From positions 4,146-42,985 of the forward strand of contig MHGT01000036.1 of the NCBI GenBank assembly GCA_001805695.1: a stretch of DNA of 38,840 nt, given 5' to 3'. Within the stretch, counting starts at the first letter, position 1, and each line of letters begins with the position of its first letter. The stretch comes from Omnitrophica WOR_2 bacterium RIFCSPHIGHO2_02_FULL_67_20 (lineage in GTDB: Bacteria; Omnitrophota; Gorgyraeia; Aquiviventales; Aquiviventaceae). The notes beneath the pieces were generated by a model. It was not told the origin of the DNA. It saw only the letters and a list, made by a program, of their open reading frames with translations, and made no database searches. The translations under genes and the position numbers were made by a program. Shown piece after piece: positions 4,271 to 32,607 of the stretch.

Positions 4271-4957
4271 ATGATGGGGCACAAGCACGAGGGCGACCGC
4301 GCCAAGCCGGTGCCCGAGCCGAAGCACCCCACCCACGGCGGCCTCGGCGACCCCGGCCCACAGGATGGGGGAGGGCCGGCCGGGGAGGCCGAAGGCCGAA
4401 GCACGCCGCGCGCAGGCAACACCGCTGAGTTGGAGCGGCTGACGCAGGAGGCGGCACAGGCCAAGGACCAGTACCTGCGGATGCTGGCCGACGTCGAGAA
4501 CACGAGGAAGCGGCTGCAGCGGGAGAAGGAGGAGTTTGCCCGGTTCGCGGCCGAGACGGTGGTGCGCGCCCTGCTGCCCATCCTGGACAGCCTGGACCAG
4601 GCGCTCGTCGCGGTGGACCGGAAGAGCGACGCGGATGCGGTCGTGAAGGGCGTCCACCTCATCCACCGCCAGCTGCATGGCGTCCTGGAGAAGGAGGGGG
4701 TCAGGCGGATCCCCACCGTCGGCGAGCCGTTCGACCCGCACCGGCATGAGGCGGTGGCCCAGGTCGAAGCGGACGGTATGGCGGATGACACGATTGTGGA
4801 AGAGGTGCAGGCGGGCTATACGATGAGCGGGAAAATGATTCGGCCCGCGATAGTGAAGGTGGCGAAAGCAAAGGAAGAGCGTTCTGGGTTGGGGGTTGAG
4901 GGTTCGGGGCAAATGCCCAGAACCCCGAACCCCGAACCCCGAACCGAGTCGGATTAA
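4271..4957 (+). CDS. grpE: Nucleotide exchange factor GrpE (C-terminal ~25 aa are translated from a repeat element)
   Basis: LRMLADVENTRKRLQREKEE and the C-terminal GYTMSGKMIRPAIVKV are typical GrpE. The ORF then reads through the 4881-4945 heptad hairpin. Confidence 0.93.
   Translation: MMGHKHEGDRAKPVPEPKHPTHGGLGDPGPQDGGGPAGEAEGRSTPRAGNTAELERLTQEAAQAKDQYLRMLADVENTRKRLQREKEEFARFAAETVVRALLPILDSLDQALVAVDRKSDADAVVKGVHLIHRQLHGVLEKEGVRRIPTVGEPFDPHRHEAVAQVEADGMADDTIVEEVQAGYTMSGKMIRPAIVKVAKAKEERSGLGVEGSGQMPRTPNPEPRTESD
4881..4945. repeat. Heptad-array hairpin: four GTTNNGG units, an AAAT loop, four CCCNGAA units
   Basis: GTTCTGG GTTGGGG GTTGAGG GTTCGGG GC-AAAT-G CCCAGAA CCCCGAA CCCCGAA CCCCGAA. 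The arms are ~25/30 complementary. Confidence 0.85.
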
Positions 4958-4969
4958 GGAGGTCTCTCA

Positions 4970-6850
4970 ATGGCAAAGGTGATCGGCATCGACTTGGGAA
5001 CATCGAACTCCGCCTGCGCCGTGATGGAGCAGGGCCGGCCGGCGATCATTCCGTCGGCGGAAGGCACGAGCGTAGGCGGCAAAGCGTTTCCGTCCTACGT
5101 GGCATTCACGAAGGACGGGCAGCTGCTGGTCGGGGAGCCGGCCCGCCGCCAGGCCGCGACCAACCCGGAGGGGACGGTGCAGGCGGCCAAGCGGAAGATG
5201 GGGACCGACCACGTGTACCGCATCTACGGCAAGGAGTACACGCCGCAGCAGATTTCCGCCTTCATCCTGCAGAAGGTGAAGCGGGACGCGGAGGCCCACC
5301 TCGGCGAGCCGGTGAAGGAAGTCGTCATCACCGTGCCCGCCTACTTCAACGACAACCAGCGCCAGGCGACCAAGGACGCGGGCGCGATCGCGGGCCTGGA
5401 GGTGCTGCGGATCGTGAACGAGCCGACCGCCGCGTGCCTCGCCTACGGCCTCGACAAGGCGGCGAAGGAGCAGAAGATCCTCGTCTTCGACCTGGGCGGC
5501 GGCACGCTCGATGTGACCATCATGGACATGGCCCAGGGGGTCTTCGAGGTCAAGGCGACGAGCGGCGATACCCAACTGGGCGGCACCGATATGGACCTCT
5601 CACTCGTGGACTACATCGCCTCCGAGTTCAAGAAGGAGACGGGGATCGACGCGCGCAACGACCGGGTGGCGGCCCAGCGCATCCGCGAGGCGGCGGAGAA
5701 GGCGAAGATCGAGCTCTCGAACGTCATCGAGACCGACCTGAACTTGCCCTTCATCACCGCGGATGCCTCCGGGCCGAAGCACCTCACCATGACGCTGACG
5801 CGCGCGACGCTCGAGCGGTTGATCGAACCCATCATCAGCCGCTGCCGCGGCCCGATCGAACGGGCGCTGGGCGACGCGAAGCTCAAGCCCTCGGACATCG
5901 ACCGCATCATCCTCGTCGGCGGCCCCACCCGCATGCCCATCGTTCAGCGGTTCGTCGAGGAGGCGGTCGGCAAGAAGGTGGAGCGGGGGGTGGACCCGAT
6001 GGAGTGCGTCGCGATGGGCGCCGCCGTCCAGGCGGGGATCATGAAGGGCGAAGTGAAGGACGTCCTCCTGCTCGACGTGACGCCGCTCTCGATGGGCATC
6101 GAGACGCTGGGCGGCGTGTTCACCAAGCTCATCGAGCGCAACACGACGGTGCCCACCCGCAAGAGCCAGGTCTTCTCGACGGCGGACGACAACCAGTCGG
6201 CGGTGACGATCCGGGTGCTCCAGGGCGAGCGGCCGATGGCCTCCGACAACGTGGAGCTGGGCCGGTTCGACCTGATCGGCATCCCGCCGGCACCCCGCGG
6301 CGTGCCGCAGGTCGAGGTGGCGTTCGACATCGACGCGAACGGCATCGTGCACGTCTCGGCCAAGGACCTCGGGACCGGCAAGGAGCAGTCGATCAAGATC
6401 ACCGCGCCCGAGAAGCTCTCGAAGGACGAGATCGAGAAGATGGTCAAGCAAGCGGAGCAGTTCGCCGAGGCGGATAAAAGCCGCAAGGAGCTGGCCGAGG
6501 CGAAGAACCAGGCGGACCAGCTCGTCTACGCGACCGAGAAGAGCCTGAAGGAGCTGGGCGACAAGGCGGGCCAGTCGGAGCGCCTGGCGATCGAGCAGGC
6601 AAGCCGCGACCTCAAGGACGCCCTCAAGTCGGACGACCTGGCGAAGATCAAGCGGGCGACCGAATCGCTCATGCAGGTTTCGCACAAGCTGGCGGAGGAA
6701 GTGTATAAGAAGGGGCAGGGGGCAAAGGGCGGGGGGCAGGGGGCGGGGGAACGCGGACCGCAGGCCCCGGAAGAGCCCGCCCAGCAGGCCGGCGGGAAGG
6801 ACGATAAGGTCGTGGACGCGGAGTTCAAGGTTAAGGATGAGGGGAAGTGA
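4970..6850 (+). CDS. dnaK: Molecular chaperone DnaK (Hsp70)
   Basis: [19 protein letters not shown] and VGGPTRMP motifs over the full length. An AAGGAGG RBS lies at 4956-4962. Confidence 0.98.
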
Positions 6851-6885: not shown

Positions 6886-7314
6886 ATGAACCTGAAGGCA
6901 TGGGCGAAGGCGACGCTCGGGGCGTTCGTCGCGATCTTTGCGGCGGAGTTTCTCATCCACCACGTCTGGCTGGGCGGGTTCTACAAGGCGCACGCGGTCT
7001 GGTGGCGCCCCGCGGCGCAGATGGGGCCGATGATGCCGCTGATGTTCGCGGCTCAGCTCGTGCTAGCGGCACTCCTCACCGTTGTGTACGCCAAGGGCTA
7101 TGAGCCGGGCAAGGGCGGGGCGGGGCAGGGGTTCCGTTTCGGCGTCCTCATCGGGCTCCTGTTGATGCTCCCCTGCAGCCTGATGAACGCCGTCATCTAC
7201 CCGTACCCGATGTCGCTCATCGTCAACTGGCTCGTCGGCGGCCTGGCCGAGATTGCGCTTGCCGGCGCGGTGATTGGGGCGCTGTATAAGCCTGGGAAGC
7301 AACAGGGAGGTTAG
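6886..7314 (+). CDS. Small multi-pass membrane protein of unknown function (possibly DUF1761-like)
   Basis: Four hydrophobic segments. The ATG at 6886 is preceded by GGGAGGGGG. The gene lies between dnaK and dnaJ. The family assignment is from memory only. Confidence 0.55.
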   Translation: MNLKAWAKATLGAFVAIFAAEFLIHHVWLGGFYKAHAVWWRPAAQMGPMMPLMFAAQLVLAALLTVVYAKGYEPGKGGAGQGFRFGVLIGLLLMLPCSLMNAVIYPYPMSLIVNWLVGGLAEIALAGAVIGALYKPGKQQGG

Positions 7315-7425
7315 CGCGTTGGCGGGTTTGCGGGTTTGCGCGTTCGAGATCGACACCATGAGGACATCTCGGGAGAAAGCAGCCGGCGTATCCGCTTAGT
7401 TCCGGCAAGACTGATTTGAAACGTG

Positions 7426-8556
7426 ATGCCGACGACGAAACGCGACTACTACGAAATCCTCGGGGTGCAGAAGAGCGCCACGCTTGACGAGATCAAGCGG
7501 GCGTACCGCCAGCTGGCGCTGAAGCACCACCCGGACCGGGTGGGGGCTGAGCACAAGAAAGAGGCCGAGGAGAAGTTCAAGGAAATCTCCGAGGCCTACG
7601 CCGTCCTCTCCGATGCGCAGAAGCGCTCGGTCTATGACCAATACGGCCACACGCCAGGTTTTGACCAGCGCTACTCGACCGAGGACATCTTCCGCAACGC
7701 CGACTTCTCGAGCATCTTCGAGGACCTCGGCCTGGGCGGCTCGTTCTTCGAGGGCCTCTTTGGGGGCGGCGCTCTGGGGGCGGGGCGCGGCGCTCGCGGC
7801 TCGGACCTCGAGATGGAGCTGCCGCTCACGTTCGAGGAGGCCGCCCGCGGGACGACGAAGATGGTCACCGTGCCGCGGCGCGAGCTCTGCCACGAGTGCC
7901 GCGGCGAAGGCGGCGAGCGCGCGGCCTGCTCGACCTGCCGCGGGACCGGGCAGATCCGCCAGTCGGCCGGGTTCATGGTCATCGCGCGCACGTGCAACCG
8001 GTGCGGTGGGCAGGGCGGCACGGTCAAGAAAGCCTGCCCGGCCTGCCGGGGGAGCGGCCGCGTGGCGGTCGAGCGCCGGATTGAGGTCCGGGTGCCGGCC
8101 GGTATCGAGTCGGGCATGCGCCTCCGGCTGGCCGGCGAAGGCGAGGCGGGCCCGCGGGCCCGCGGCGATCTCTACGTCCACCTGACCGTCAAACCGCACC
8201 CGCTGTTCCGGCGGGAGGGGCCGCACCTGATCCTCGAGTACCCGGCGAGTATCGCGCAGGCCGCGCTGGGCGCCGAGGTGGAGCTGCCCACGATGAACGG
8301 CCGGGTGTCGATGAAGATCCCGCCGGGGACGCAGAGCGGCACGGTGTTCCGGGTGCGGGGCAAGGGGCTGCCCGACGTGCAGGAGCGGGGGGGGACGGGC
8401 GATCTCCTCGTGCGGGTGAGCGTCGAGACGCCAACGAACCTGACCGGCGCCCAGCGCAAGGCGTTCGAGGAGCTCTTCCGCGCGCTGGGCGACGACGCGC
8501 ACCCCGCGCGGAGGTCGTTCTTGGCGAAACTCAAGGAGTTGATCAAGCAGCGTTGA
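7426..8556 (+). CDS. dnaJ: Co-chaperone DnaJ
   Basis: J-domain DYYEILGV...HPD, a G/F-rich linker, and four CxxCxGxG zinc motifs ([32 protein letters not shown]). Confidence 0.97.
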
Positions 8557-8656
8557 GCCGGTTTTGCCCGTTATGCCGGTTGGCCCGTTAGAGCCGGTTC
8601 GGTACCAACGGGCTCAACGGGCTCAACGGGCCCAACGGGCTCAACGGGCCAACGGA
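8551..8656. repeat. 9-bp-unit palindromic array, GCCCGTT/GCCGGTT family, copy 1 of 4
   Basis: gagccggtt ttgcccgtt atgccggtt ggcccgtta gagccggtt cggtacc aacgggc tcaacgggc tcaacgggc ccaacgggc tcaacgggc caacgg. The dnaJ stop codon (8554-8556) lies inside the first unit. Confidence 0.9.
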
Positions 8657-13437: not shown

Positions 13438-13544
13438 TTCGTTAAGCCCGTTAAGCCCGTTGGGCCCGTTGGGCCCGTTGAGTCCGTTCGGACGGGCCGC
13501 CAACCGGCTCAACGGGCGCAACCGGCCTAACGGGCTCAACCGGG
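13438..13544. repeat. 9-bp-unit palindromic array, GCCCGTT family, copy 2 of 4
   Basis: gcccgttaa gcccgttaa?gcccgttgg gcccgttgg gcccgttga gtccgttcg gacgggccg ccaaccggc tcaacgggc gcaaccggc ctaacgggc tcaaccggg. It ends 1 nt before the next ATG (13546). Confidence 0.9.
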
Positions 13545-15028: not shown

Positions 15029-15099
15029 ATTTCGGATTTCGGATTTGGGATTTCGGATCCAAAGGTTTCGTCCGCAATCCGTAATCCGCAATCCGAAAT
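15029..15099. repeat. Heptad-array hairpin: 4 x ATTTCGG-type units, a loop, 4 x CCGNAAT units
   Basis: ATTTCGG ATTTCGG ATTTGGG ATTTCGG (15029-15056), then CCGCAAT CCGTAAT CCGCAAT CCGAAAT (15072-15099). Confidence 0.88.
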
Positions 15100-15112: not shown

Positions 15113-16390
15113 ATGGTAATTGTCACCTCTCTCTGGCTCCTCGCCATGGTCTCCGGCCTCTGCTGGGCGCGCCGCTACACGGCGGCGCTGAGCGCCGTGA
15201 CCGCCCTGGCGTTCATCGCCACCGAGGCCGAGACGCTGCTCGCATGGACCGGTTGGCTCCAGCTGGCGGCGTTGGGTGCGACACCCTGGCTGCTGGCGGC
15301 CCAGCGCCTGCAGGATGCGCTGACCGTCAGGCGGCTGCATGATGAGGAGGCCGCGCGCCTCGCCAAGCTCTCCGAGGCGGCCCGGTCGCTCCTCTCGCTG
15401 CAGCGCTCGACCGACCAGATGGAGGCGCAGATCAGCCAGATCACCGATCTCTACCACGTGACGAAGGAGACCTCGCGGGCGATGCACGTGAAGGAGCTCT
15501 TCGCCGCGTCGCTGGATATCGCGCCCCGCCTGCTCAGCGCCAGCGGCCTGCGCCTCATCGACCTCTCCGGCGAAGAGCCCCGCGTCCTGCGGGCCGCGCG
15601 CGGGGCGGACGGGCGCATGCGGGAGGAACAGGCCGACGGGCCGCTCGATGCGGAGCGCGCCATCATCCAGGAGGCGCTGGCGTCGGCCCCCCAGGCGGCG
15701 GGCGGGCGGACGGGGCCATCGGGCCTGGCCTGGGCGCCGCTGTGGCGTGAACAACACGCGGTGGGAGTGCTGGTCGCCGACGGGCTGCCGGATGACCAAA
15801 TCCGGACGCTGACGATCGTCGCGAACCAGCTTTCGCTCCAGCTGGCCCGCGTCACGCTCTACCAGCGGGTGGAGTCGCTCGCCGTCACGGATGCGCTCAC
15901 CGGCCTCTTCGTGCGCCGGCACTTCATGGAGCGCTCCAGGGAGGAGCTGACGCGCTCCAAGCGCCACGGCCTGGCCTGCTCGCTGCTCATGGTCGACCTC
16001 GACCACTTCAAGCAGAAGAACGACACGTACGGCCACCTGGTCGGCGACGTCGTCCTCCGCGACGTGGCGCGGCTGCTGGCGCACAACCTCCGCGAGGTGG
16101 ACCTCATCGCCCGCTACGGCGGCGAAGAACTCGTGCTCATGCTCATCGAAACCGGGCCGGCGCAGGCGCTGCCGATCGCCCAGCGGCTCGCTCAGCTCGT
16201 CGCGGTGCACCCGATCCGCGCCTACGATGAGCTCCTGACGCAGACGGTCAGCATGGGGTTGGCCGCCTTCCCGGACCACGGCGACACGCTGGAAACGCTG
16301 ATTGAGCGGGCGGACCAGGCGCTGTACGCGGCGAAGCAGGCGGGGAGGAATCGTGTCGTTGTGTACTCGGAAAAAACGCAGGGGGTGTAG
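15113..16390 (+). CDS. Membrane-anchored GGDEF diguanylate cyclase (GGEEL variant with an RxxD I-site)
   Basis: DLDHFKQKNDTYGHLVGD, REVDLIARYGGEEL (RxxD five residues before the GGEEL motif), and an N-terminal hydrophobic region. Confidence 0.9.
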   Translation: MVIVTSLWLLAMVSGLCWARRYTAALSAVTALAFIATEAETLLAWTGWLQLAALGATPWLLAAQRLQDALTVRRLHDEEAARLAKLSEAARSLLSLQRSTDQMEAQISQITDLYHVTKETSRAMHVKELFAASLDIAPRLLSASGLRLIDLSGEEPRVLRAARGADGRMREEQADGPLDAERAIIQEALASAPQAAGGRTGPSGLAWAPLWREQHAVGVLVADGLPDDQIRTLTIVANQLSLQLARVTLYQRVESLAVTDALTGLFVRRHFMERSREELTRSKRHGLACSLLMVDLDHFKQKNDTYGHLVGDVVLRDVARLLAHNLREVDLIARYGGEELVLMLIETGPAQALPIAQRLAQLVAVHPIRAYDELLTQTVSMGLAAFPDHGDTLETLIERADQALYAAKQAGRNRVVVYSEKTQGV

Positions 16391-16455
16391 CGTGTACCGT
16401 TTACCGTGTACCGTCAAGAGCGATGAATCAGGTTTTCACGGTACACCGTACACGG
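16391..16455. repeat. Heptad-array hairpin: GTGTACC-type units and their complement GGTACAC
   Basis: GTGTACC GTTTACC GTGTACC GT (16392-16414), a loop, then AC GGTACAC CGTACAC GG (16438-16455). It runs directly into the 112-nt element. Confidence 0.8.
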
Positions 16456-16568
16456 TTCACCCCGTACCACGGTGGACGCCCCGCCCGTCAGGGCGGGGAG
16501 GAATGGCGTGGTCGTCCCGAAGGGTCGTTCCAGAGGCCACGGCCGTTAGGCCGTGGTACGGGGTTCAC
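16455..16568 (+). repeat. Conserved ~112-nt structured palindromic element, copy A (possible ncRNA, cis-regulatory RNA or MITE)
   Basis: About 80% identical by eye to 22887-22997. Terminal complement ACCCCGTACCACGG / CCGTGGTACGGGGT. Hairpins CCCCGCCC-GTCA-GGGCGGGG and CCACGGCC-GTTA-GGCCGTGG. Confidence 0.7.
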
Positions 16569-16585
16569 GGTACACGCACGATGTG

Positions 16586-17548
16586 ATGAGCGCGACGCCG
16601 TGGGCAGTTGGGGTGGATTTTGGCGGCACGACGGTGAAGGTGGGGCTGGTGACGCCCGCCGGCCGCGTGGCCGCGGTCCGCGTGCTCCCGACCGCGGAGC
16701 TCCGCCGTCCGGCGCAGTTCGCCGACGCGGTGAGCCAGGCGGTCCGGTCACTAGTCCAAGAACGCGGCCTGCGCATGAGCCGGATCGCGGGAGTCGGCAT
16801 CGGCGCGCCCGGGCCGGTGGACGCGGCGCGCGGCGTCATCCACTCGATGGTGAACGTGCCGGGGTGGCGCGAGGTTCCGCTGGCGCGGCGGCTCGCGCGG
16901 CGGCTTCAGTGCCGGTGCGTCGTGGATAACGACGCCAACTGCTTTGCGCTGGCCGAGTGGCGCTTCGGCGCGGGACGTGGCGCCGATGACCTTATCTGCC
17001 TCACGCTCGGGACGGGCCTCGGCGGCGGACTGATCCTGGACGGCGCGCTCTACCGCGGAGCCTCGGGTGCTGCGGGGGAGCCCGGCCACATGGTCATCGA
17101 CCCCCGCGGGCCGCGCTGCGGCTGCGGGCGGCGCGGGTGCCTGGAGGCGCTCGTGGGTACAGCGGCCATTGTGGCGCTCGGGCGGCCGGCCCTTCGGCGA
17201 TCGGCCCACCTGCGGCGGCTGGTTCGCGCGCACGGTGGACGGTTGATGCCCCGTCTGATTGGCCGGGCGGCTCGCGCGGGGGACCCGCACGCGCGGGCGG
17301 TCTGGGCCGAGATCGGGGCGCGCCTTGGCGTCGGCGTGGCGAACCTCGTGAACCTGTGCAACCCCGAGCGCGTGGTGATCGGCGGCGGGATCGCGAATAA
17401 CTGGTCGCTGTTCGCGCCGGCGATGCGCGTGACCGTGCGCCGCGAGGCGATGGCGGGGAGCGCGCGCGCGGTCCGGATCGTGCGCGCCCGGCTCGGAGAC
17501 TACGCTGGCATTGTCGGAGCGGCTGTGCTAGTTTGGGAAGACCGTTAG
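16586..17548 (+). CDS. ROK-family glucokinase/sugar kinase
   Basis: The N-terminal AVGVDFGGTTVKVGL and the zinc motif GHMVIDPRGPRCGCGRRGCLE are typical ROK features. A GTG at 16583 is an alternative start. Confidence 0.88.
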   Translation: MSATPWAVGVDFGGTTVKVGLVTPAGRVAAVRVLPTAELRRPAQFADAVSQAVRSLVQERGLRMSRIAGVGIGAPGPVDAARGVIHSMVNVPGWREVPLARRLARRLQCRCVVDNDANCFALAEWRFGAGRGADDLICLTLGTGLGGGLILDGALYRGASGAAGEPGHMVIDPRGPRCGCGRRGCLEALVGTAAIVALGRPALRRSAHLRRLVRAHGGRLMPRLIGRAARAGDPHARAVWAEIGARLGVGVANLVNLCNPERVVIGGGIANNWSLFAPAMRVTVRREAMAGSARAVRIVRARLGDYAGIVGAAVLVWEDR

Positions 17549-17634
17549 GTCCGTTATGCCGGTTGCGCCCGTTGAGCCGGTTGGCAGTCCGTGCGAACGG
17601 GCTCAACGGGCCTAACGGGCTCAACGGGCCAACG
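17541..17634. repeat. 9-bp-unit palindromic array, GCCCGTT family, copy 3 of 4
   Basis: accgttagg tccgttatg ccggttgcg cccgttgag ccggttgg cagtccgtgcg aacgggc tcaacgggc ctaacgggc tcaacgggc caacgag. The ROK stop codon (17546-17548) lies in the first unit. Confidence 0.9.
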
Positions 17635-22856: not shown

Positions 22857-22886
22857 GGATGGCGCCGACCCGGACCGCCGCCGGCC

Positions 22887-22997
22887 GTTCACCCCGTACC
22901 ACGGAAGCCCCGCCTGTCAAGGCGGGGAGGAAGTGGCAATCGACCCCGAAGGGTATTTTCGGAAGCCACGGGCGTAAGCCCGTGGTACGGGGTTCGC
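22887..22997 (+). repeat. Conserved ~112-nt structured palindromic element, copy B
   Basis: It has the same termini and the same three helices as 16455-16568. Two stem positions changed in a compensatory way (CCCCGCCT-GTCA-AGGCGGGG and CCACGGGC-GTAA-GCCCGTGG). Confidence 0.7.
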
Positions 22998-23542
22998 CCA
23001 TCGCCGGAGTCCCCCGCGGGGATCGGGAGAGCCGCTCCGCGCGTCCGGAGGTCCCGGCCCCGGCCTCGCGGACGGCGGGGAAGCCGCTCATTCAGGGGCT
23101 GCGGACCAAAGCGCTGCGCGTGGTGCCGGACGAGCGCGGCCGTCTCTTCGAGATGCTGCGGCAGGATGACGAGCTGTTCCTGAAGTTCGGGCAGGCGTAC
23201 TGCACGACCGTGAACGCCGGCGTGGTGAAGGGCTGGCACTATCACAAGAAACAGCAGGACAACTTCGTCTGCGTCAGCGGCATGATCAAGCTGGTGGCGT
23301 ACGACAGCCGGCCGGACTCGCCGACCAAGGGCCTCCTCAACGAATTCTTTATCGGCGTCCACCATCCGCTGCTCGTGCAGATCCCGCCGGGCGTCTACCA
23401 CGGCTTCAAAGGGCTCACCGACCCGGAGGCGATCGTCATCAACCTCTCGACCGAGCCCTACGACCATCAGCAGCCCGACGAGTACCGCCTGCCGCCGCAC
23501 ACGAGCGAGATCCCCTATGACTGGAACCACAAGGATGGGTGA
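22982..23542 (+). CDS. rmlC: dTDP-4-dehydrorhamnose 3,5-epimerase-like cupin (short RmlC-type); start uncertain
   Basis: The conserved core starts near 23090 (LIQGLRTKALRVVPDERGRLFEML...GWHYHKKQQDNFVCVSG...PPGVYHGF). The only canonical in-frame start upstream of the core is the GTG at 22982, inside repeat copy B. Confidence 0.75.
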   Translation: MVRGSPIAGVPRGDRESRSARPEVPAPASRTAGKPLIQGLRTKALRVVPDERGRLFEMLRQDDELFLKFGQAYCTTVNAGVVKGWHYHKKQQDNFVCVSGMIKLVAYDSRPDSPTKGLLNEFFIGVHHPLLVQIPPGVYHGFKGLTDPEAIVINLSTEPYDHQQPDEYRLPPHTSEIPYDWNHKDG

Positions 23543-27766: not shown

Positions 27767-28710
27767 TGGCGCGATATCTTGTGACAGGCGGGGCGGGGTT
27801 CATCGGCTCGCATGTTGTGGACCGGCTGCTCGCCGACGGCCACCAGGTGCGCGTGCTGGACGACCTCTCCTCCGGCCGGCGGGAGAACCTCGCGCAGGCG
27901 GGCAAGCGCGTCGAGTTCATCCAGGCGGACATCCGCGACCGCGCCGCGATGGGCAAGGCGTGCAAGGGTATTACGCGCATCATCCACGCCGCCGCCTGGC
28001 GCAGCGTCCCGAAGTCCATGGCCGATCCCTACGGCTACACCGACGTCAACGTCCTCGCCACGGTGAACCTCCTCGAAACGGCGGTGAAGGAGAAGGTGAA
28101 GCGGGTCGTGTGCGTCTCGTCCAGCTCGGTCTACGGCGATGCGACGAAGATGCCGCTGCGCGAGGACGCCCCGACTCTTCCGATCTCCCCCTATGCGGCC
28201 TCGAAGCTGGCCGACGAGCTCTTCTGCGGCCTCTTCCACCGCGCCTTCGGGCTCGAGACGGTCGCCGTGCGGTACTTCAACGTCTTCGGCCCCCGGCAGA
28301 GCCTGGAGAACGAGTACGCGGTGGTGATCCCGAAGTTCATCGTCTGTCTCCTCCGCAAGGAATCGCCGCCGATCTACGGCGATGGCACGCAGTCGCGCGA
28401 CTTCACCTACGTGGATAACGTGGTCGAGGGCACCATCGCGGCCTCCCAGGTTCCCGGCGTCAGCGGCGAGGTGTTCAACGTGGCGCTCGGCGAGGAGCAC
28501 ACGGTGCTCCATCTCCTGGAGGAGCTGAACTCGATCATGAGCCTCTCCATCAAGCCGGCCTTCAAGCCCCCGCGAGCCGGCGACGTCAAGCGCACCTTCG
28601 CCGATTCCTCCAAGGCCGAGCGGCTGCTCAAGTGGAAGGGGCGCATCAGCTTCTCCGAGGGGCTGCGCCGCACCGTCGACTGGTTCCGGGCGCACCCGCC
28701 GAAAGCGTAG
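27766..28710 (+). CDS. NAD-dependent nucleotide-sugar 4-epimerase (WbpP/TviC-like SDR)
   Basis: [22 protein letters not shown] and YAASKLADE. It lies directly after the UDP-N-acetylhexosamine dehydrogenase, as in the WbpO/WbpP and TviB/TviC pairs. Confidence 0.88.
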   Translation: MARYLVTGGAGFIGSHVVDRLLADGHQVRVLDDLSSGRRENLAQAGKRVEFIQADIRDRAAMGKACKGITRIIHAAAWRSVPKSMADPYGYTDVNVLATVNLLETAVKEKVKRVVCVSSSSVYGDATKMPLREDAPTLPISPYAASKLADELFCGLFHRAFGLETVAVRYFNVFGPRQSLENEYAVVIPKFIVCLLRKESPPIYGDGTQSRDFTYVDNVVEGTIAASQVPGVSGEVFNVALGEEHTVLHLLEELNSIMSLSIKPAFKPPRAGDVKRTFADSSKAERLLKWKGRISFSEGLRRTVDWFRAHPPKA

Positions 28711-28711
28711 T

Positions 28712-28806
28712 GCGTTGGGCCCGTTGTGCCGGTTGAGCCTGTTGGAAGGTTGAATACCCTCTCACCAAACGGGCCTAACGGACAAAACCGGCCTAACGGG
28801 TCAAAC
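28712..28806. repeat. 9-bp-unit palindromic array, GCCCGTT family, copy 4 of 4 (more degenerate)
   Basis: gcgttgg gcccgttgt gccggttga gcctgttgg ... caaacgggc ctaacggac aaaaccggc ctaacgggt. Confidence 0.8.
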
Positions 28807-28812
28807 CCGCAG

Positions 28813-31553: not shown

Positions 31554-31663
31554 TGCGCGTCCTCCTCACCGGAGGGGCCGGGTTCACCCCGCACCACCCC
31601 TCCTTGGCAGGATGGACGGTACAGGCCTGCTCGACACGGTGGGAGACCCCGCGATGGGTATGA
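31553..31663 (+). pseudogene. 5' stub of an SDR epimerase/dehydratase gene (first 11 codons only)
   Basis: The ATG overlaps the preceding stop (TGATG) and encodes [11 protein letters not shown]. Similarity is then lost, and the stub stops just past the real start of the next SDR gene ([15 protein letters not shown] at 31660). Confidence 0.45.
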
Positions 31664-32607
31664 GGGTTTTGATCACGGGGGGTGCGGGGTTCATCGGTTC
31701 CCATCTGTGCGACCGGTTCCTCGCCGAGGGCCACACCGTCATCTGCGTAGACAATTTTCTCACCGGCGCTGAGGCGAACATCGCCCATCTGCGCTCCAAA
31801 TCGTCATTCCAGTTCATCCGGCATGACATCTCGAAGTCCCTCGAAGTGGAGGGGGTAATTGACCTCATCCTCCATTTCGCCTCTCCCGCCAGCCCCATTG
31901 ACTACCTGAAGCTTCCCATCCAGACCCTGAAGGTGGGCTCCATCGGGACGATGAATGCTCTCGGGATCGCGAAGGCCAAGCGGGCGCGGTTTCTCTTGGC
32001 CTCGACGTCGGAGGTCTACGGCGATCCGGATGTGCACCCACAGGTCGAGACCTACTGGGGGCATGTCAACCCCATCGGCCCACGGGGGGTCTACGACGAA
32101 GCGAAGCGGTTTGCGGAAGCCATGACCATGGCCTACCACCGCGCGCATGGCGTGGACACGCGCATCGTGCGCATCTTCAACACCTACGGGCCGAGGATGC
32201 GCGCCAACGATGGCCGAGCGATCCCGGCCTTCATCAGCCAGGCACTCCGCCAAGAGCCCATCACCGCGTTCGGGGACGGCTCCCAGACGCGGTCGTTCTG
32301 TTATGTGGATGACCTGATCGAAGGGATCGTGCGGCTCTCCCGCTGCGCCTACCACGACCCGGTTAATCTCGGCAATCCCGAAGAATACACCATCCTCCAG
32401 CTCGCCGAGAAGATCATCGAGCTGACCAAGAGCCAGAGCCGGGTGGAGCTGCATCCGCTGCCGCAGGACGATCCCAAGCAGCGCTGCCCCAACATCAGCC
32501 TCGCGAAGCGGCTCCTCAACTGGAAGCCGCAGACCCCGCTGACAGATGGTCTGCGCAAGACCATCCCCTGGTTTGCCGAGCAGCTCAAGCGGTTTCCCGC
32601 GACATGA
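31660..32607 (+). CDS. UDP-glucuronate decarboxylase (UDP-xylose synthase)-like SDR
   Basis: [20 protein letters not shown]...[36 protein letters not shown] and [10 protein letters not shown] are typical of UXS-type enzymes. Confidence 0.88.

Follow-up and report, generated by a model that had tools for sequence, protein, structure and literature searches.

Does a folded element of about 112 nt that occurs twice within 38,840 nt of DNA from Omnitrophica WOR_2 bacterium RIFCSPHIGHO2_02_FULL_67_20 regulate the sugar-metabolism genes that follow it, or is it a piece of DNA that moves? We refer to the whole stretch analysed (contig MHGT01000036.1, positions 4,146 to 42,985) as the window, and to the two occurrences as copies A and B. 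The original prediction, made from the letters of this stretch, saw compensatory base-pair changes and a switch-like pair of alternative helices, and proposed a structured cis-regulatory RNA, a small non-coding RNA or a MITE. Analysis of the window together with related loci suggests that copies A and B very probably arose by insertion of a miniature mobile element that is non-coding and non-autonomous.

Two copies of a folded element in the window

Global alignment of positions 16455-16568 with 22887-22997 gave 94 identical columns out of 116 (81%), which bears out the claim of a repeated element. Counting the 18-mer GTTCACCCCGTACCACGG together with its near reverse complement gives five occurrences in the window against an expectation of 0.01, and hairpin 1 with the AGGAA that follows it occurs exactly twice against an expectation of 0. 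Between copies A and B, C-G becomes T-A in hairpin 1 and C-G becomes G-C in hairpin 3, both with pairing kept, and the 14-bp terminal helix that competes with hairpin 3 for CCGTGG is present in the sequence as described. Of the two segments that had been called invariant, AGGAA is near-invariant, whereas the GTCA loop is not, the family-wide loop being GTNA. The unit is bordered by a 5-nt direct repeat, TTCAC/TTCAC for copy A and TTCAC/TTCGC for copy B, and the inserted unit of copy A comprises 108 nt, namely the core at 16461-16563 and one pentamer (Table 1).

Both copies are predicted to fold strongly (copy A, -70.6 kcal/mol, z -5.9 against shuffles; copy B, -63.7 kcal/mol, z -6.3), and their reverse strands fold nearly as strongly (z -4.9 and z -5.3, respectively). 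That both strands fold suggests that the symmetry belongs to the DNA and not to one transcript. The apparent switch between alternative pairings results from an overlap of hairpin 3 with the 3' terminal repeat, the 3' strand of the hairpin in copy A doubling as the inner part of that repeat, and since all positions of the alternative pairing are invariant, covariation is no test of it. A small ORF placed after GGAGG in the AGGAA segment was rejected because the frames differ between copies A and B, and scans for promoters and terminators around the two copies found none.

Copy A lies 17 nt upstream of the start of a ROK kinase gene, within an older intergenic hairpin. In-silico removal of 16461-16568 leaves ...CGTACAC GGTTCAC GGTACAC GC and restores a hairpin of -42.6 kcal/mol. 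Insertion of copy A would thus have split this intergenic hairpin, and any effects on expression would be incidental and not ligand-controlled. Copy B, which differs by a single mismatch from a copy in an Omnitrophota MAG of GC content 0.54, had been thought to overlap the only start candidate of an RmlC-like gene; the open frame extends upstream to include a further ATG at 22859, with a Shine-Dalgarno-like GGGGAG. The copy is in frame (+1, no stop) within the N-terminal extension of this gene, whose homologues are 153 aa long and have their start ATG where the window gene reads AAG CCG. The coding status of the extension is ambiguous; copy B may lie inside, or supply the start for, a lineage-specific extension. 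A possible degenerate relative was matched at 31583..31693, where the match covers the terminal stem only and overlaps the duplicated 5' end of an SDR gene.

Table 1. Features of copies A and B and of related sequences, in window coordinates
Feature	Position	Strand	Remarks
Copy A, left TTCAC through right TTCAC	16456..16568	+	model R1, 120 bits
Copy A left pentamer TTCAC	16456..16460	+	TCAC at 16457-16460, proposed target / left cleavage word (C_L)
Copy A 5' arm of 13-bp terminal inverted repeat, CCCCGTACCACGG	16460..16472	+	invariant in family
Copy A GACG 5' of hairpin 1 foot	16475..16478	+	proposed left guide (G_L, pattern GANG); IS608 rule
Copy A hairpin 1, CCCCGCCC-GTCA-GGGCGGGG	16479..16498	+	then near-invariant AGGAA (16499-16503); 5/8 pairs changed on both sides
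Copy A hairpin 2 tip, CCC-GAA-GGG	16516..16524	+	weaker support: 78% of cells paired
Copy A GAGG 5' of hairpin 3 foot	16533..16536	+	proposed right guide (G_R)
Copy A hairpin 3, CCACGGCC-GTTA-GGCCGTGG	16537..16556	+	one position: CG 15, GC 11, AU 3
Copy A 3' arm of terminal inverted repeat, CCGTGGTACGGGG	16551..16563	+	
Copy A right pentamer TTCAC	16564..16568	+	TCAC at 16565-16568, proposed element-borne right cleavage word (C_R)
Older intergenic hairpin of GTGTACC-type heptamers	16385..16579	.	split by copy A
Copy B	22888..22997	+	model R1, 119.8 bits; inserted unit 105 nt
Copy B left pentamer TTCAC	22888..22892	+	
Copy B 5' terminal repeat arm	22892..22904	+	
Copy B GAAG	22904..22907	+	proposed left guide
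Copy B hairpin 1, CCCCGCCT-GTCA-AGGCGGGG	22908..22927	+	then AGGAA 22928-22932
Copy B GAAG	22962..22965	+	proposed right guide
Copy B hairpin 3, CCACGGGC-GTAA-GCCCGTGG	22966..22985	+	
Copy B 3' terminal repeat arm	22980..22992	+	
Copy B right pentamer TTCGC	22993..22997	+	
RmlC-like gene	22859..23542	+	public-assembly call, 227 aa
Possible degenerate relative, TTCA-CCCCGCACC ... GGTGCGGGG-TTCA	31583..31693	+	period 107; 26.5 bits, E 2e-4
Single-end sequence, left: TCAC-CCCGTACCACGG			
Single-end sequence, right: hairpin 3 + TACGGGGTTCAC			

A dispersed family and its probable insertion sites

Metagenomes and MAGs, mostly of Omnitrophota, carry the element at more than 40 unrelated loci. Of the family loci returned by pattern scans, 9 came from GTDB genomes and 32 from metagenomes, and model R1 recovered 43 full-length copies at 71-121 bits; the family is spread over Omnitrophota and some neighbouring lineages. 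The sequence of copy A is 100% identical at six loci with unrelated flanks (the window, L136, L144, L145, L146 and L151), and seven more loci cluster with it at 93% identity. Conservation ends on each side at a TTCAC-like pentamer, beyond which there is none. Left and right pentamers are the same in 29 of 41 copies, and in all but one of the 41 the orientation relative to the asymmetric TTCAC word is the same. Unit lengths run from 102 to 116 nt and are mostly 102, 105 or 108 nt (variants, 35-146 nt), the insert length being a multiple of 3 in 17 of 24 sequence clusters. The element has no coding capacity of its own, and no reading frame is consistent among copies.

Structure is kept throughout, in hosts with GC contents from 0.45 to 0.68. 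Among 33 aligned copies the perfect 13-bp terminal inverted repeat shows no change. Compensatory changes keep the three internal hairpins across the family, and hairpins 1 and 3 each have an 8-bp stem and a GTNA loop. Eleven pairs were changed on both sides, and none of 500 shuffles reached the observed covariation score (0.170, against 0.007-0.067 in slid controls). Such a covariation-supported structure is not specific to RNA, and the compensatory changes fit hairpin shapes recognised by a transposase as well as they fit an RNA. This carries a caution for RNA discovery, in that a sequence present twice, with compensatory changes and a second possible pairing, is also to be expected of mobile hairpins recognised by shape.

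The genes beside or containing copies encode LigT, PabB/TrpE, a pseudopilin, FolP, ProC, a LacI-type regulator, RsmI, BioD, RecO and a GT4 transferase. The apparent preference for sugar genes was thus a coincidence of this window, with functionally unrelated neighbours elsewhere. Most copies are intergenic and many lie just upstream of start codons; both gene orientations occur, about one-third of copies being antisense to local genes. Some are within genes, as in LigT (L136), between the Anth_synt_I_N and Chorismate_bind domains of a PabB/TrpE-like enzyme (L130), and directly before the prepilin N-methylation motif of a pseudopilin (L138), whereas in P0127, with two tandem GT4 halves, the insert is in one half only. 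Orientation and some coding insertions (L120, L121, L123 and L139) were called from open-frame length and GC3 only. In-frame inserts, which are favoured by the lengths of 102, 105 or 108 nt and by the open frames, add 34-36 residues to proteins; an exhaustive phmmer search with the frame-0 peptide gave nine matches, and a word-indexed search with the same peptide found no shared words. A further copy (L145) sits at the centre of a 9-nt array.

Sites that appear to lack the element may point to insertion. A syntenic relative (~80% protein identity) has no element at either the A or the B site, the stop of its UDP-glucose dehydrogenase (UGDH) gene overlapping the rmlC ATG, and carries a copy of its own between DAO and lexA-like genes, a place that is empty in the window. 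Two contigs (L003 and L004) cross the B site without the element as GGCCG-TTCGC-CCA, both ending 8 nt past the junction; an empty allele would read GGCCG-TTC(A/G)C-CCATCGCC. A precise empty site sought in the closest relatives was given up, one (L152) having an extra gene there and the other (L153) having spacers that could not be aligned with the window. Near-identical copies at unrelated loci, without gene-context preference and with short flanking direct repeats, are what the original prediction had named as the mark of a plain MITE. These observations speak against a switch-like cis-regulatory RNA, and the suggestion of a MITE with terminal inverted repeats of ~14 bp was essentially right. 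The prediction had also allowed for a known Rfam family; searches at the gathering score and at E<=10 returned chance-level matches only (e.g. HgcC, 18 bits against a cut-off of 50).

Models for movement of the element

The ends of the element suggest how it may move. In published IS608, the left cleavage word C_L TTAC goes with the guide G_L AAAG, and C_R TCAA with G_R GAAT; G1 pairs with C-3 and G2 with C-4, and C-2 is unpaired. The guide rule that we applied consists of these two published pairs plus G4:C-1, which we read from the two IS608 word pairs. In the element the words are TCAC with GANG and, judged on sequence, the rule holds for 35 of 41 left ends and for 34 of 41 right ends. There is covariation between G1 and C-3, with G:C in 35 copies at each end and A:T in four at the left and three at the right. 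One sub-lineage (L033, L128 and L137) has AANG with TTAC at both ends, and a further copy (L082) is mixed, with AAAG and TTTAC at the left and GAAG and TCAC at the right. The variable positions, G3 and C-2, are the two outside the pairing. Distances from cleavage word to hairpin foot are 15-18 nt and 12 nt in the element, similar to those in IS608, where the cleavage sites are 19 nt from the foot on the 5' side and 10 nt on the 3' side. A first guide model, a plain antiparallel TTC:GAA pairing, did not fit the GACG and GAGG of copy A, which the published rule accommodates by leaving G3 unpaired. A bottom-strand model suggested by the alleles at the B site was also rejected, as the guide rule fails on that strand of copy B.

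Given mobility, these patterns incline us towards a Y1 HUH transposase of the IS200/IS605 type that acts in trans and moves the element in single-stranded DNA form. Since no transposase was found, we infer the mobilising enzyme, which would be either a TnpA or a related RAYT/TIRYT enzyme. It would recognise the left end by hairpin 1 and the right end by hairpin 3, and the GANG 5' of each hairpin foot would serve as a guide by pairing with TCAC. At the left, TCAC would be the target, the element inserting 3' of this word in a single orientation, and the right TCAC would be the element's own; because the guides are alike at both ends, the cleavage words would be alike too, imitating a target-site duplication. 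The 13-14-bp terminal helix may clamp both ends together in the single strand.

We put somewhat less than even weight on the more specific proposal that the family is an undescribed miniature lineage of the IS200/IS605 type, with one guide code at both ends (GANG/TCAC, retargeted to AANG/TTAC), a 13-bp clamp, and 3n length and open frames shaped for persistence in genes, as in the palindromic elements of Rickettsia, across Omnitrophota and neighbouring phyla. Were it true, target choice could be read and predicted from the element sequence alone. A literature search found the end sequences in no relevant paper, and no paper linking Omnitrophota with MITEs.

Several observations count against an IS608-like reading. 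The guide covariation comes from one sub-lineage and L082, and G3, a conserved A in IS608, is variable here. Nothing in the element is more conserved than its perfect 13-bp repeat, whereas IS200/IS605 elements lack terminal inverted repeats. At the B site, the apparent empty allele is TTCGC and the filled allele has TTCAC at the left and TTCGC at the right, so that simple IS608-type insertion or precise excision needs one substitution. Some copies also have matching non-consensus pentamers (TTCGC/TTCGC at L126 and TCCGC/TCCGC at L122), which a staggered-cut duplication explains more simply.

The last of these points, with the matching words at L033 and L128 and the identity of the flanking repeats in most copies, favours a classical MITE, that is, a deletion derivative of a DDE-transposase IS that is mobilised in trans through its 13-bp repeats and makes a staggered cut at TTCA(C) to give a 4-5-bp target-site duplication. 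The perfect repeats are as expected of such an element, and where the arms change they change together (GTA>GCC with TAC>GGC at L120, 436-585, and L153). We nevertheless think this unlikely, as one orientation in 40 of 41 copies is not the expected outcome when a symmetric transposase dimer works on identical ends, and neither the compensatory upkeep of the internal hairpins nor the tracking of the flanking word by the tetranucleotides 5' of both hairpins is explained.

Searches for a partner bear on both models of transposition. In 1.2 Mb of loci, terminal-repeat pairs 140-4000 nt apart gave nothing convincing as an autonomous partner, and so no partner insertion sequence for a classical MITE. 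For a Y1 transposase, tblastn over the same 1.2 Mb of family loci (RayT and IS200 TnpA queries) gave a best E of 0.09, to a PhyH-type protein that proved a false lead, and no RAYT gene flanked by repeats was seen in the family loci searched. A scan of viral contigs for the element gave 0 matches, and blastn against plasmid and phage collections gave none.

Selection for a host function, as for REP/BIME or Correia repeats, with the element serving at the DNA or RNA level as an mRNA stabiliser, a processing site or a protein-binding site, appears improbable. Such domestication would fit the orthologous folP loci L127 and L133, where conservation is higher in the element than in the sequence on either side, the upkeep of structure across hosts of differing GC content, the enrichment near gene starts and the fixation of copy A, whose site is occupied in five other assemblies, but recent spread is equally able to explain the conservation. 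Position and orientation relative to genes are inconsistent, and the coding insertions are in different frames and therefore give no common peptide. A riboswitch-like cis-regulatory RNA for the downstream sugar-metabolism genes is almost certainly not the answer: the strong predicted folds, the real covariation of hairpins 1 and 3, the two mutually exclusive pairings of CCGTGG, the sugar-related genes behind both window copies and the many copies just before start codons elsewhere speak for it, but downstream genes share no common function, about one-third of copies are antisense and several lie within coding sequences, identical copies stand between direct repeats at unrelated loci, the syntenic relative has no copy at either of the two window sites, folding of the reverse strand is almost as strong and no Rfam family matches.

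Mobility, the reading we prefer, has consequences for Omnitrophota genomes. The element makes gene calls too long or displaces them, as in the 227-aa 'RmlC', and may break assemblies.

Comparison with known mobile and repeated elements

Bacterial MITEs such as Correia, ERIC, RUP and Nezha are small, non-coding and multi-copy, have terminal inverted and short direct repeats and the potential to form strong hairpins if transcribed, and are in some cases intragenic (PMC10969869), all of which are traits of the element as well. Those MITEs duplicate symmetric targets (e.g. TA) and insert in either orientation, whereas the element has an asymmetric word, one orientation and covarying internal hairpins. 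Among REP and REPIN sequences, a tagged REP unit resembles hairpin 3 with the adjacent GTAC, and hairpin 3 is the only REP-like part; the tag is GTAC and not GTAG or CGTC, the unit is asymmetric and not a simple inverted doublet, and it is bounded by a specific pentamer. A REPIN-like element with >100 copies in two Planctomycete MAGs shares CGTACCACGG with the element, along with hairpins of the same type at its two ends, and intragenic REPs have been reported in PVC bacteria and Rickettsia. The TIRs beside TIRYT genes share GGGGWSAS (PMC3733652), which is close to GGGGTTCAC and GGGGTCAC of the element.

IS608 and other IS200/IS605 elements, with their gene-less derivatives (palindrome-associated transposable elements, PATEs), have two subterminal hairpins on one strand, as the element does. 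On sequence, IS608 and the element also have in common a 4-nt guide 5' of each foot under the same rule (G1:C-3, G2:C-4 and G4:C-1, with G3 and C-2 unpaired) and insertion beside a word in one orientation. The words are nearly alike, being TCAA/GAAT and TTAC/AAAG in IS608 and TCAC/GANG and TTAC/AANG in the element. At ~105 nt, with no TnpA or TnpB found, the element has an extra middle hairpin and the conserved AGGAA; it alone is closed by a perfect 13-bp terminal inverted repeat, and it has the same guide and word at both ends, so that its flanks resemble a duplication.

The palindromic elements of Rickettsia are ~100-150 nt long and occur in frame in unrelated protein genes (PMC10969869). 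The element is likewise palindromic and in frame in LigT, the PabB/TrpE-like enzyme, the pseudopilin and the GT4 transferase, a likeness by description, with no relationship in sequence expected. Its hosts are free-living Omnitrophota and PVC-type bacteria, it is mostly intergenic, and it is read in various frames and orientations without a family-wide conserved peptide. If the IS608-like reading is true, the family would be a natural case of a DNA-guided target code that changes together with its target, and a free-living counterpart of the in-frame palindromic elements of Rickettsia.

Conserved structure of the two copies and their relatives

We found that copies A and B, the two look-alike elements of about 110 nt in the window, are identical at 94 of 116 columns (81%) when aligned over their full length, as originally predicted, and the double substitutions proposed for hairpins 1 and 3 are visible directly in the two sequences. 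The terminal 18-mer common to both, together with its near reverse complement, was counted five times in the window (0.01 expected), and hairpin 1 with AGGAA twice (0 expected). Both copies fold far better than shuffled sequences (z −5.9 for A, −6.3 for B), and their reverse complements fold nearly as well (z −4.9 and −5.3). The competing pairings of CCGTGG that had suggested a switch can be read from the sequence; they are a consequence of the overlap between hairpin 3 and the 3′ terminal repeat, and covariation is silent on them because the positions involved never vary. Neither copy matched any Rfam family, whether the search applied the gathering score or a looser cut-off. Three proteins encoded in the window have identical counterparts among the entries of Omnitrophica WOR_2 bacterium RIFCSPHIGHO2_02_FULL_67_20, and the window's contig is also present in several groundwater and soil assemblies. 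At the copy A locus of another assembly (L001), a G>T change leaves hairpin 1 without its loop-closing pair (GTCATGGCGGGG), a polymorphism within the population.

A covariance model of the element (R1), built from 33 copies, found 43 full-length copies at 71–121 bits, plus short and long variants. In an alignment of 34 distinct copies on the model, 93.8% of cells were paired and 11 pairs had changes on both sides; none of 500 shuffles reached the observed covariation score, which dropped from 0.170 to 0.007–0.067 when partners were slid. The covariation is located in hairpins 1 and 3 and is weak in hairpin 2, and the terminal helix is invariant save for two variants (GTA>GCC together with TAC>GGC). 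Size variants with the same flanks include single hairpins of 20–40 nt between TTCA and TGAA, a 63-nt form whose inner hairpin differs (CCGTTCCAAC...GTTGGAACGG) and a 146-nt form in which hairpin 3 contains an insertion and the ends have become CCCGCCCCACGG. The sole copy with its interior inverted relative to canonical TTCAC flanks (L005) would be an expected outcome of recombination between the two terminal repeats. Elsewhere in the window, a diverged 34-nt duplicate of the 5′ end of an SDR gene, ~70 nt apart, is flanked by a 9-bp inverted repeat, TTCA-CCCCGCACC ... GGTGCGGGG-TTCA, whose period is 107. This region scores 26.5 bits with R1, in the terminal stem only, and may represent either a degenerated relative of the element or the result of an aberrant event at a similar-looking end.

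Dispersal and insertion sites

At least 115 loci came from a search for the inner terminal repeats in genomes representing one species each; among the matches listed these were mostly a different, REPIN-like family from two Planctomycete MAGs. That element (L006–L119; contigs JBBROD01..., Tepidisphaerales, and JANMES01..., Phycisphaerae) is present in >100 copies of ~127 nt, with a GTAC-tagged hairpin at both ends (CGTACCACGGGCC-TCC-GGCCCGTG), a variable ~50-nt spacer between them and a CGTACCACGG core in common with the A/B family. True relatives of A and B occupied at least nine loci in the same scan (locus GC 0.45 to 0.64), in MAGs labelled Omnitrophota, 'Planctomycetales', 'Deltaproteobacteria' and 'Saccharibacteria', and 32 further loci came from a metagenome scan with a family-specific pattern. 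The sequence of copy A is 100% identical at the window, L136, L144, L145, L146 and L151, and its 93% cluster holds seven more loci, with unrelated flanks at all of them; copy B differs by one base from the copy at L074, a MAG locus with GC 0.54. The element is a dispersed repeat with unrelated flanks and unrelated neighbour genes (ROK, RmlC-like, FolP, ProC, LacI-type regulator, RsmI, BioD and RecO among them).

Similarity among copies ends on each side at one pentamer, TTCAC in most, beyond which nothing is conserved. Removing copy A and one pentamer in silico joins the flanking sequence into one continuous heptamer array (…CGTACAC GGTTCAC GGTACAC GC) that folds as a hairpin (−42.6 kcal/mol, z −6.3), which indicates that copy A split an older intergenic hairpin. 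The L145 copy sits at the centre of an inverted array, with 9-nt units, of a type seen throughout the window. Most intergenic spacers of the window contain two short tandem arrays in inverted orientation, making long hairpins between genes, with 7–9-nt units repeated 3–6 times on one arm and complemented on the other; the unit varies by spacer.

A syntenic relative (L153–L155), with the gene order of the window and an RmlC ~80% identical, lacks the element at the A site and has no spacer whatever at the B site: there the stop codon of the UDP-glucose dehydrogenase (UGDH) gene and the ATG of rmlC overlap. A full copy does occur in this relative between the DAO and lexA-like genes, a position at which the window lacks the element. 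The A site is occupied in five further assemblies. Two short contigs of other samples (L003 and L004) read as an element-free B site, GGCCG-TTCGC-CCA (GGCCGTTCGCCCA), which is suggestive only, since these independent assemblies share one and the same end point, 8 nt beyond the junction; a mixed population, or a break in the assembly caused by the repeat, may account for the common end.

Copies within and beside genes

Judged from crude ORF prediction, roughly two thirds of copies are oriented with local genes and one third against. Several lie inside long open frames of high GC3, lengthening the frame by exactly 34–36 codons, and three host proteins were confirmed by Pfam. An exhaustive phmmer search with the frame-0 peptide of copy A matched nine representative proteins, one being an 897-aa tandem GT4 glycosyltransferase in which one half has the insert and the other does not. 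Reading frame and strand differ among the intragenic copies, so no common peptide is under selection. Of 24 sequence clusters, which are not independent, 17 had inserts of 102, 105 or 108 nt, where chance predicts one third.

Homologues of the window's RmlC-like protein have 153 aa and start MR(L/V)I.G. In the window AAG CCG stands in place of their ATG, and translation must therefore begin upstream, at the ATG at 22859 or at a GTG inside the 3′ terminal repeat. Copy B is open in this frame, and the base composition of the extension is compatible with either coding or non-coding sequence. Compared with L153, the lost ATG is also a lost ATGA stop/start overlap with the UGDH gene, and the RmlC-like gene has gained 222 very GC-rich nt, 105 of them copy B. 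Two related genomes (L127 and L133) have orthologous copies, each upstream of folP, that differ at about four positions, one a compensated hairpin 1 pair (CCCCACCC/GGGTGGGG); divergence is far greater in the flanking spacer than in the element.

Coordinates of the elements, variants and associated repeats
Locus	Position (nt)	Feature
Window	16455-16568	copy A
Window	22887-22997	copy B
Window; L153	22859-23085; 9990-10010	RmlC-like 5′ region compared
L001	4914-5031	copy A locus, another assembly
L003; L004	1600-1622; 1570-1590	element-free B site
L127; L133	6693-6804; 2747-2858	folP copies
L153	2879-2918; 17183-17212	size variants
L133	6845-6885	size variant
L127	202-274	size variant
L120	436-585	size variant
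L005	7771-7890	inverted interior
Window	31555-31693	SDR 5′-end duplicate
Window	4916-4945; 6712-6749; 7309-7344; 8551-8655; 13440-13543; 15029-15099; 16385-16455 with 16569-16579; 17540-17634; 28700-28807	inverted spacer arrays
L145	around 1100-1200	inverted spacer array
L136		copy within LigT / 2',5'-RNA ligase (Pfam)
L130		copy between N-terminal and chorismate-binding domains, PabB/TrpE-type enzyme (Pfam)
L138		copy directly before prepilin N-methylation motif, pseudopilin (Pfam)

Probable mode of movement and known systems

In published IS608, the cleavage words are TTAC (left flank) and TCAA (right end), with the guides AAAG and GAAT immediately 5′ of the respective hairpin feet; guide base G1 pairs with word base C-3 and G2 with C-4, leaving C-2 without a partner and one guide base flipped out. 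From the two word pairs we read G4 as pairing with C-1 and G3 as the flipped-out base. As in IS608, hairpins 1 and 3 of the A/B family, both 8-bp stems with GTNA loops, are each preceded by a tetranucleotide, GANG (GAAG, GACG, GAGG or GATG), and the family word is TCAC at left flank and right end alike. Of 41 copies, 35 obey the guide-word rule at the left end and 34 at the right end. One sub-lineage (L033, L128 and L137) has the word TTAC with both guides AANG, L082 has left AAAG with TTTAC and right GAAG with TCAC, and free variation falls at G3 and C-2 (e.g. TTCGC), the two positions outside the pairing. Distances from hairpin foot to cleavage are 15–18 nt and 12 nt in the family, against 19 nt 5′ and 10 nt 3′ in IS608.

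Given mobility, these sequence features suggest that the element was, on balance, probably moved by a Y1 HUH enzyme (IS200/IS605, RAYT or TIRYT-type). The apparent target duplication would then consist of one word from the target and one carried by the element, which match because the two guides do. Counting against a Y1 HUH enzyme are the 13-bp terminal inverted repeat, absent from IS608; the non-consensus words identical on both sides at L126 and L122; the B-site alleles, which need one substitution for simple insertion or precise excision, although deletion between GTTC repeats would fit them; and the finding of no transposase in the 1.2 Mb of locus sequence examined. A plain DDE-type MITE is the main rival, and the element has generic attributes of a MITE (small size, dispersed copies, terminal inverted repeats and flanking pentamers that may be a target duplication) except an identified partner; that 40 of 41 copies share one orientation relative to the asymmetric target word, and that internal hairpins are kept by compensatory change, argue against it. 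A riboswitch, the reading first favoured, is unsupported given dispersed copies, unrelated flanks and genes, both orientations, intragenic sites and no Rfam family.

The element's end sequences were not found in the searchable literature. Its value lies in natural guide/target covariation, in an in-frame insertion habit in a free-living candidate phylum and in a warning for RNA-motif discovery. Intragenic REPs have been reported in PVC bacteria (PMC3733652), and the in-frame, multiple-of-3 habit of the A/B family is that known from Rickettsia palindromic elements (PMC10969869). Taken with the IS608 comparison, our analysis suggests an element that resembles an IS200/IS605-derived miniature element in its workings and a Rickettsia palindromic element in its behaviour within genes.
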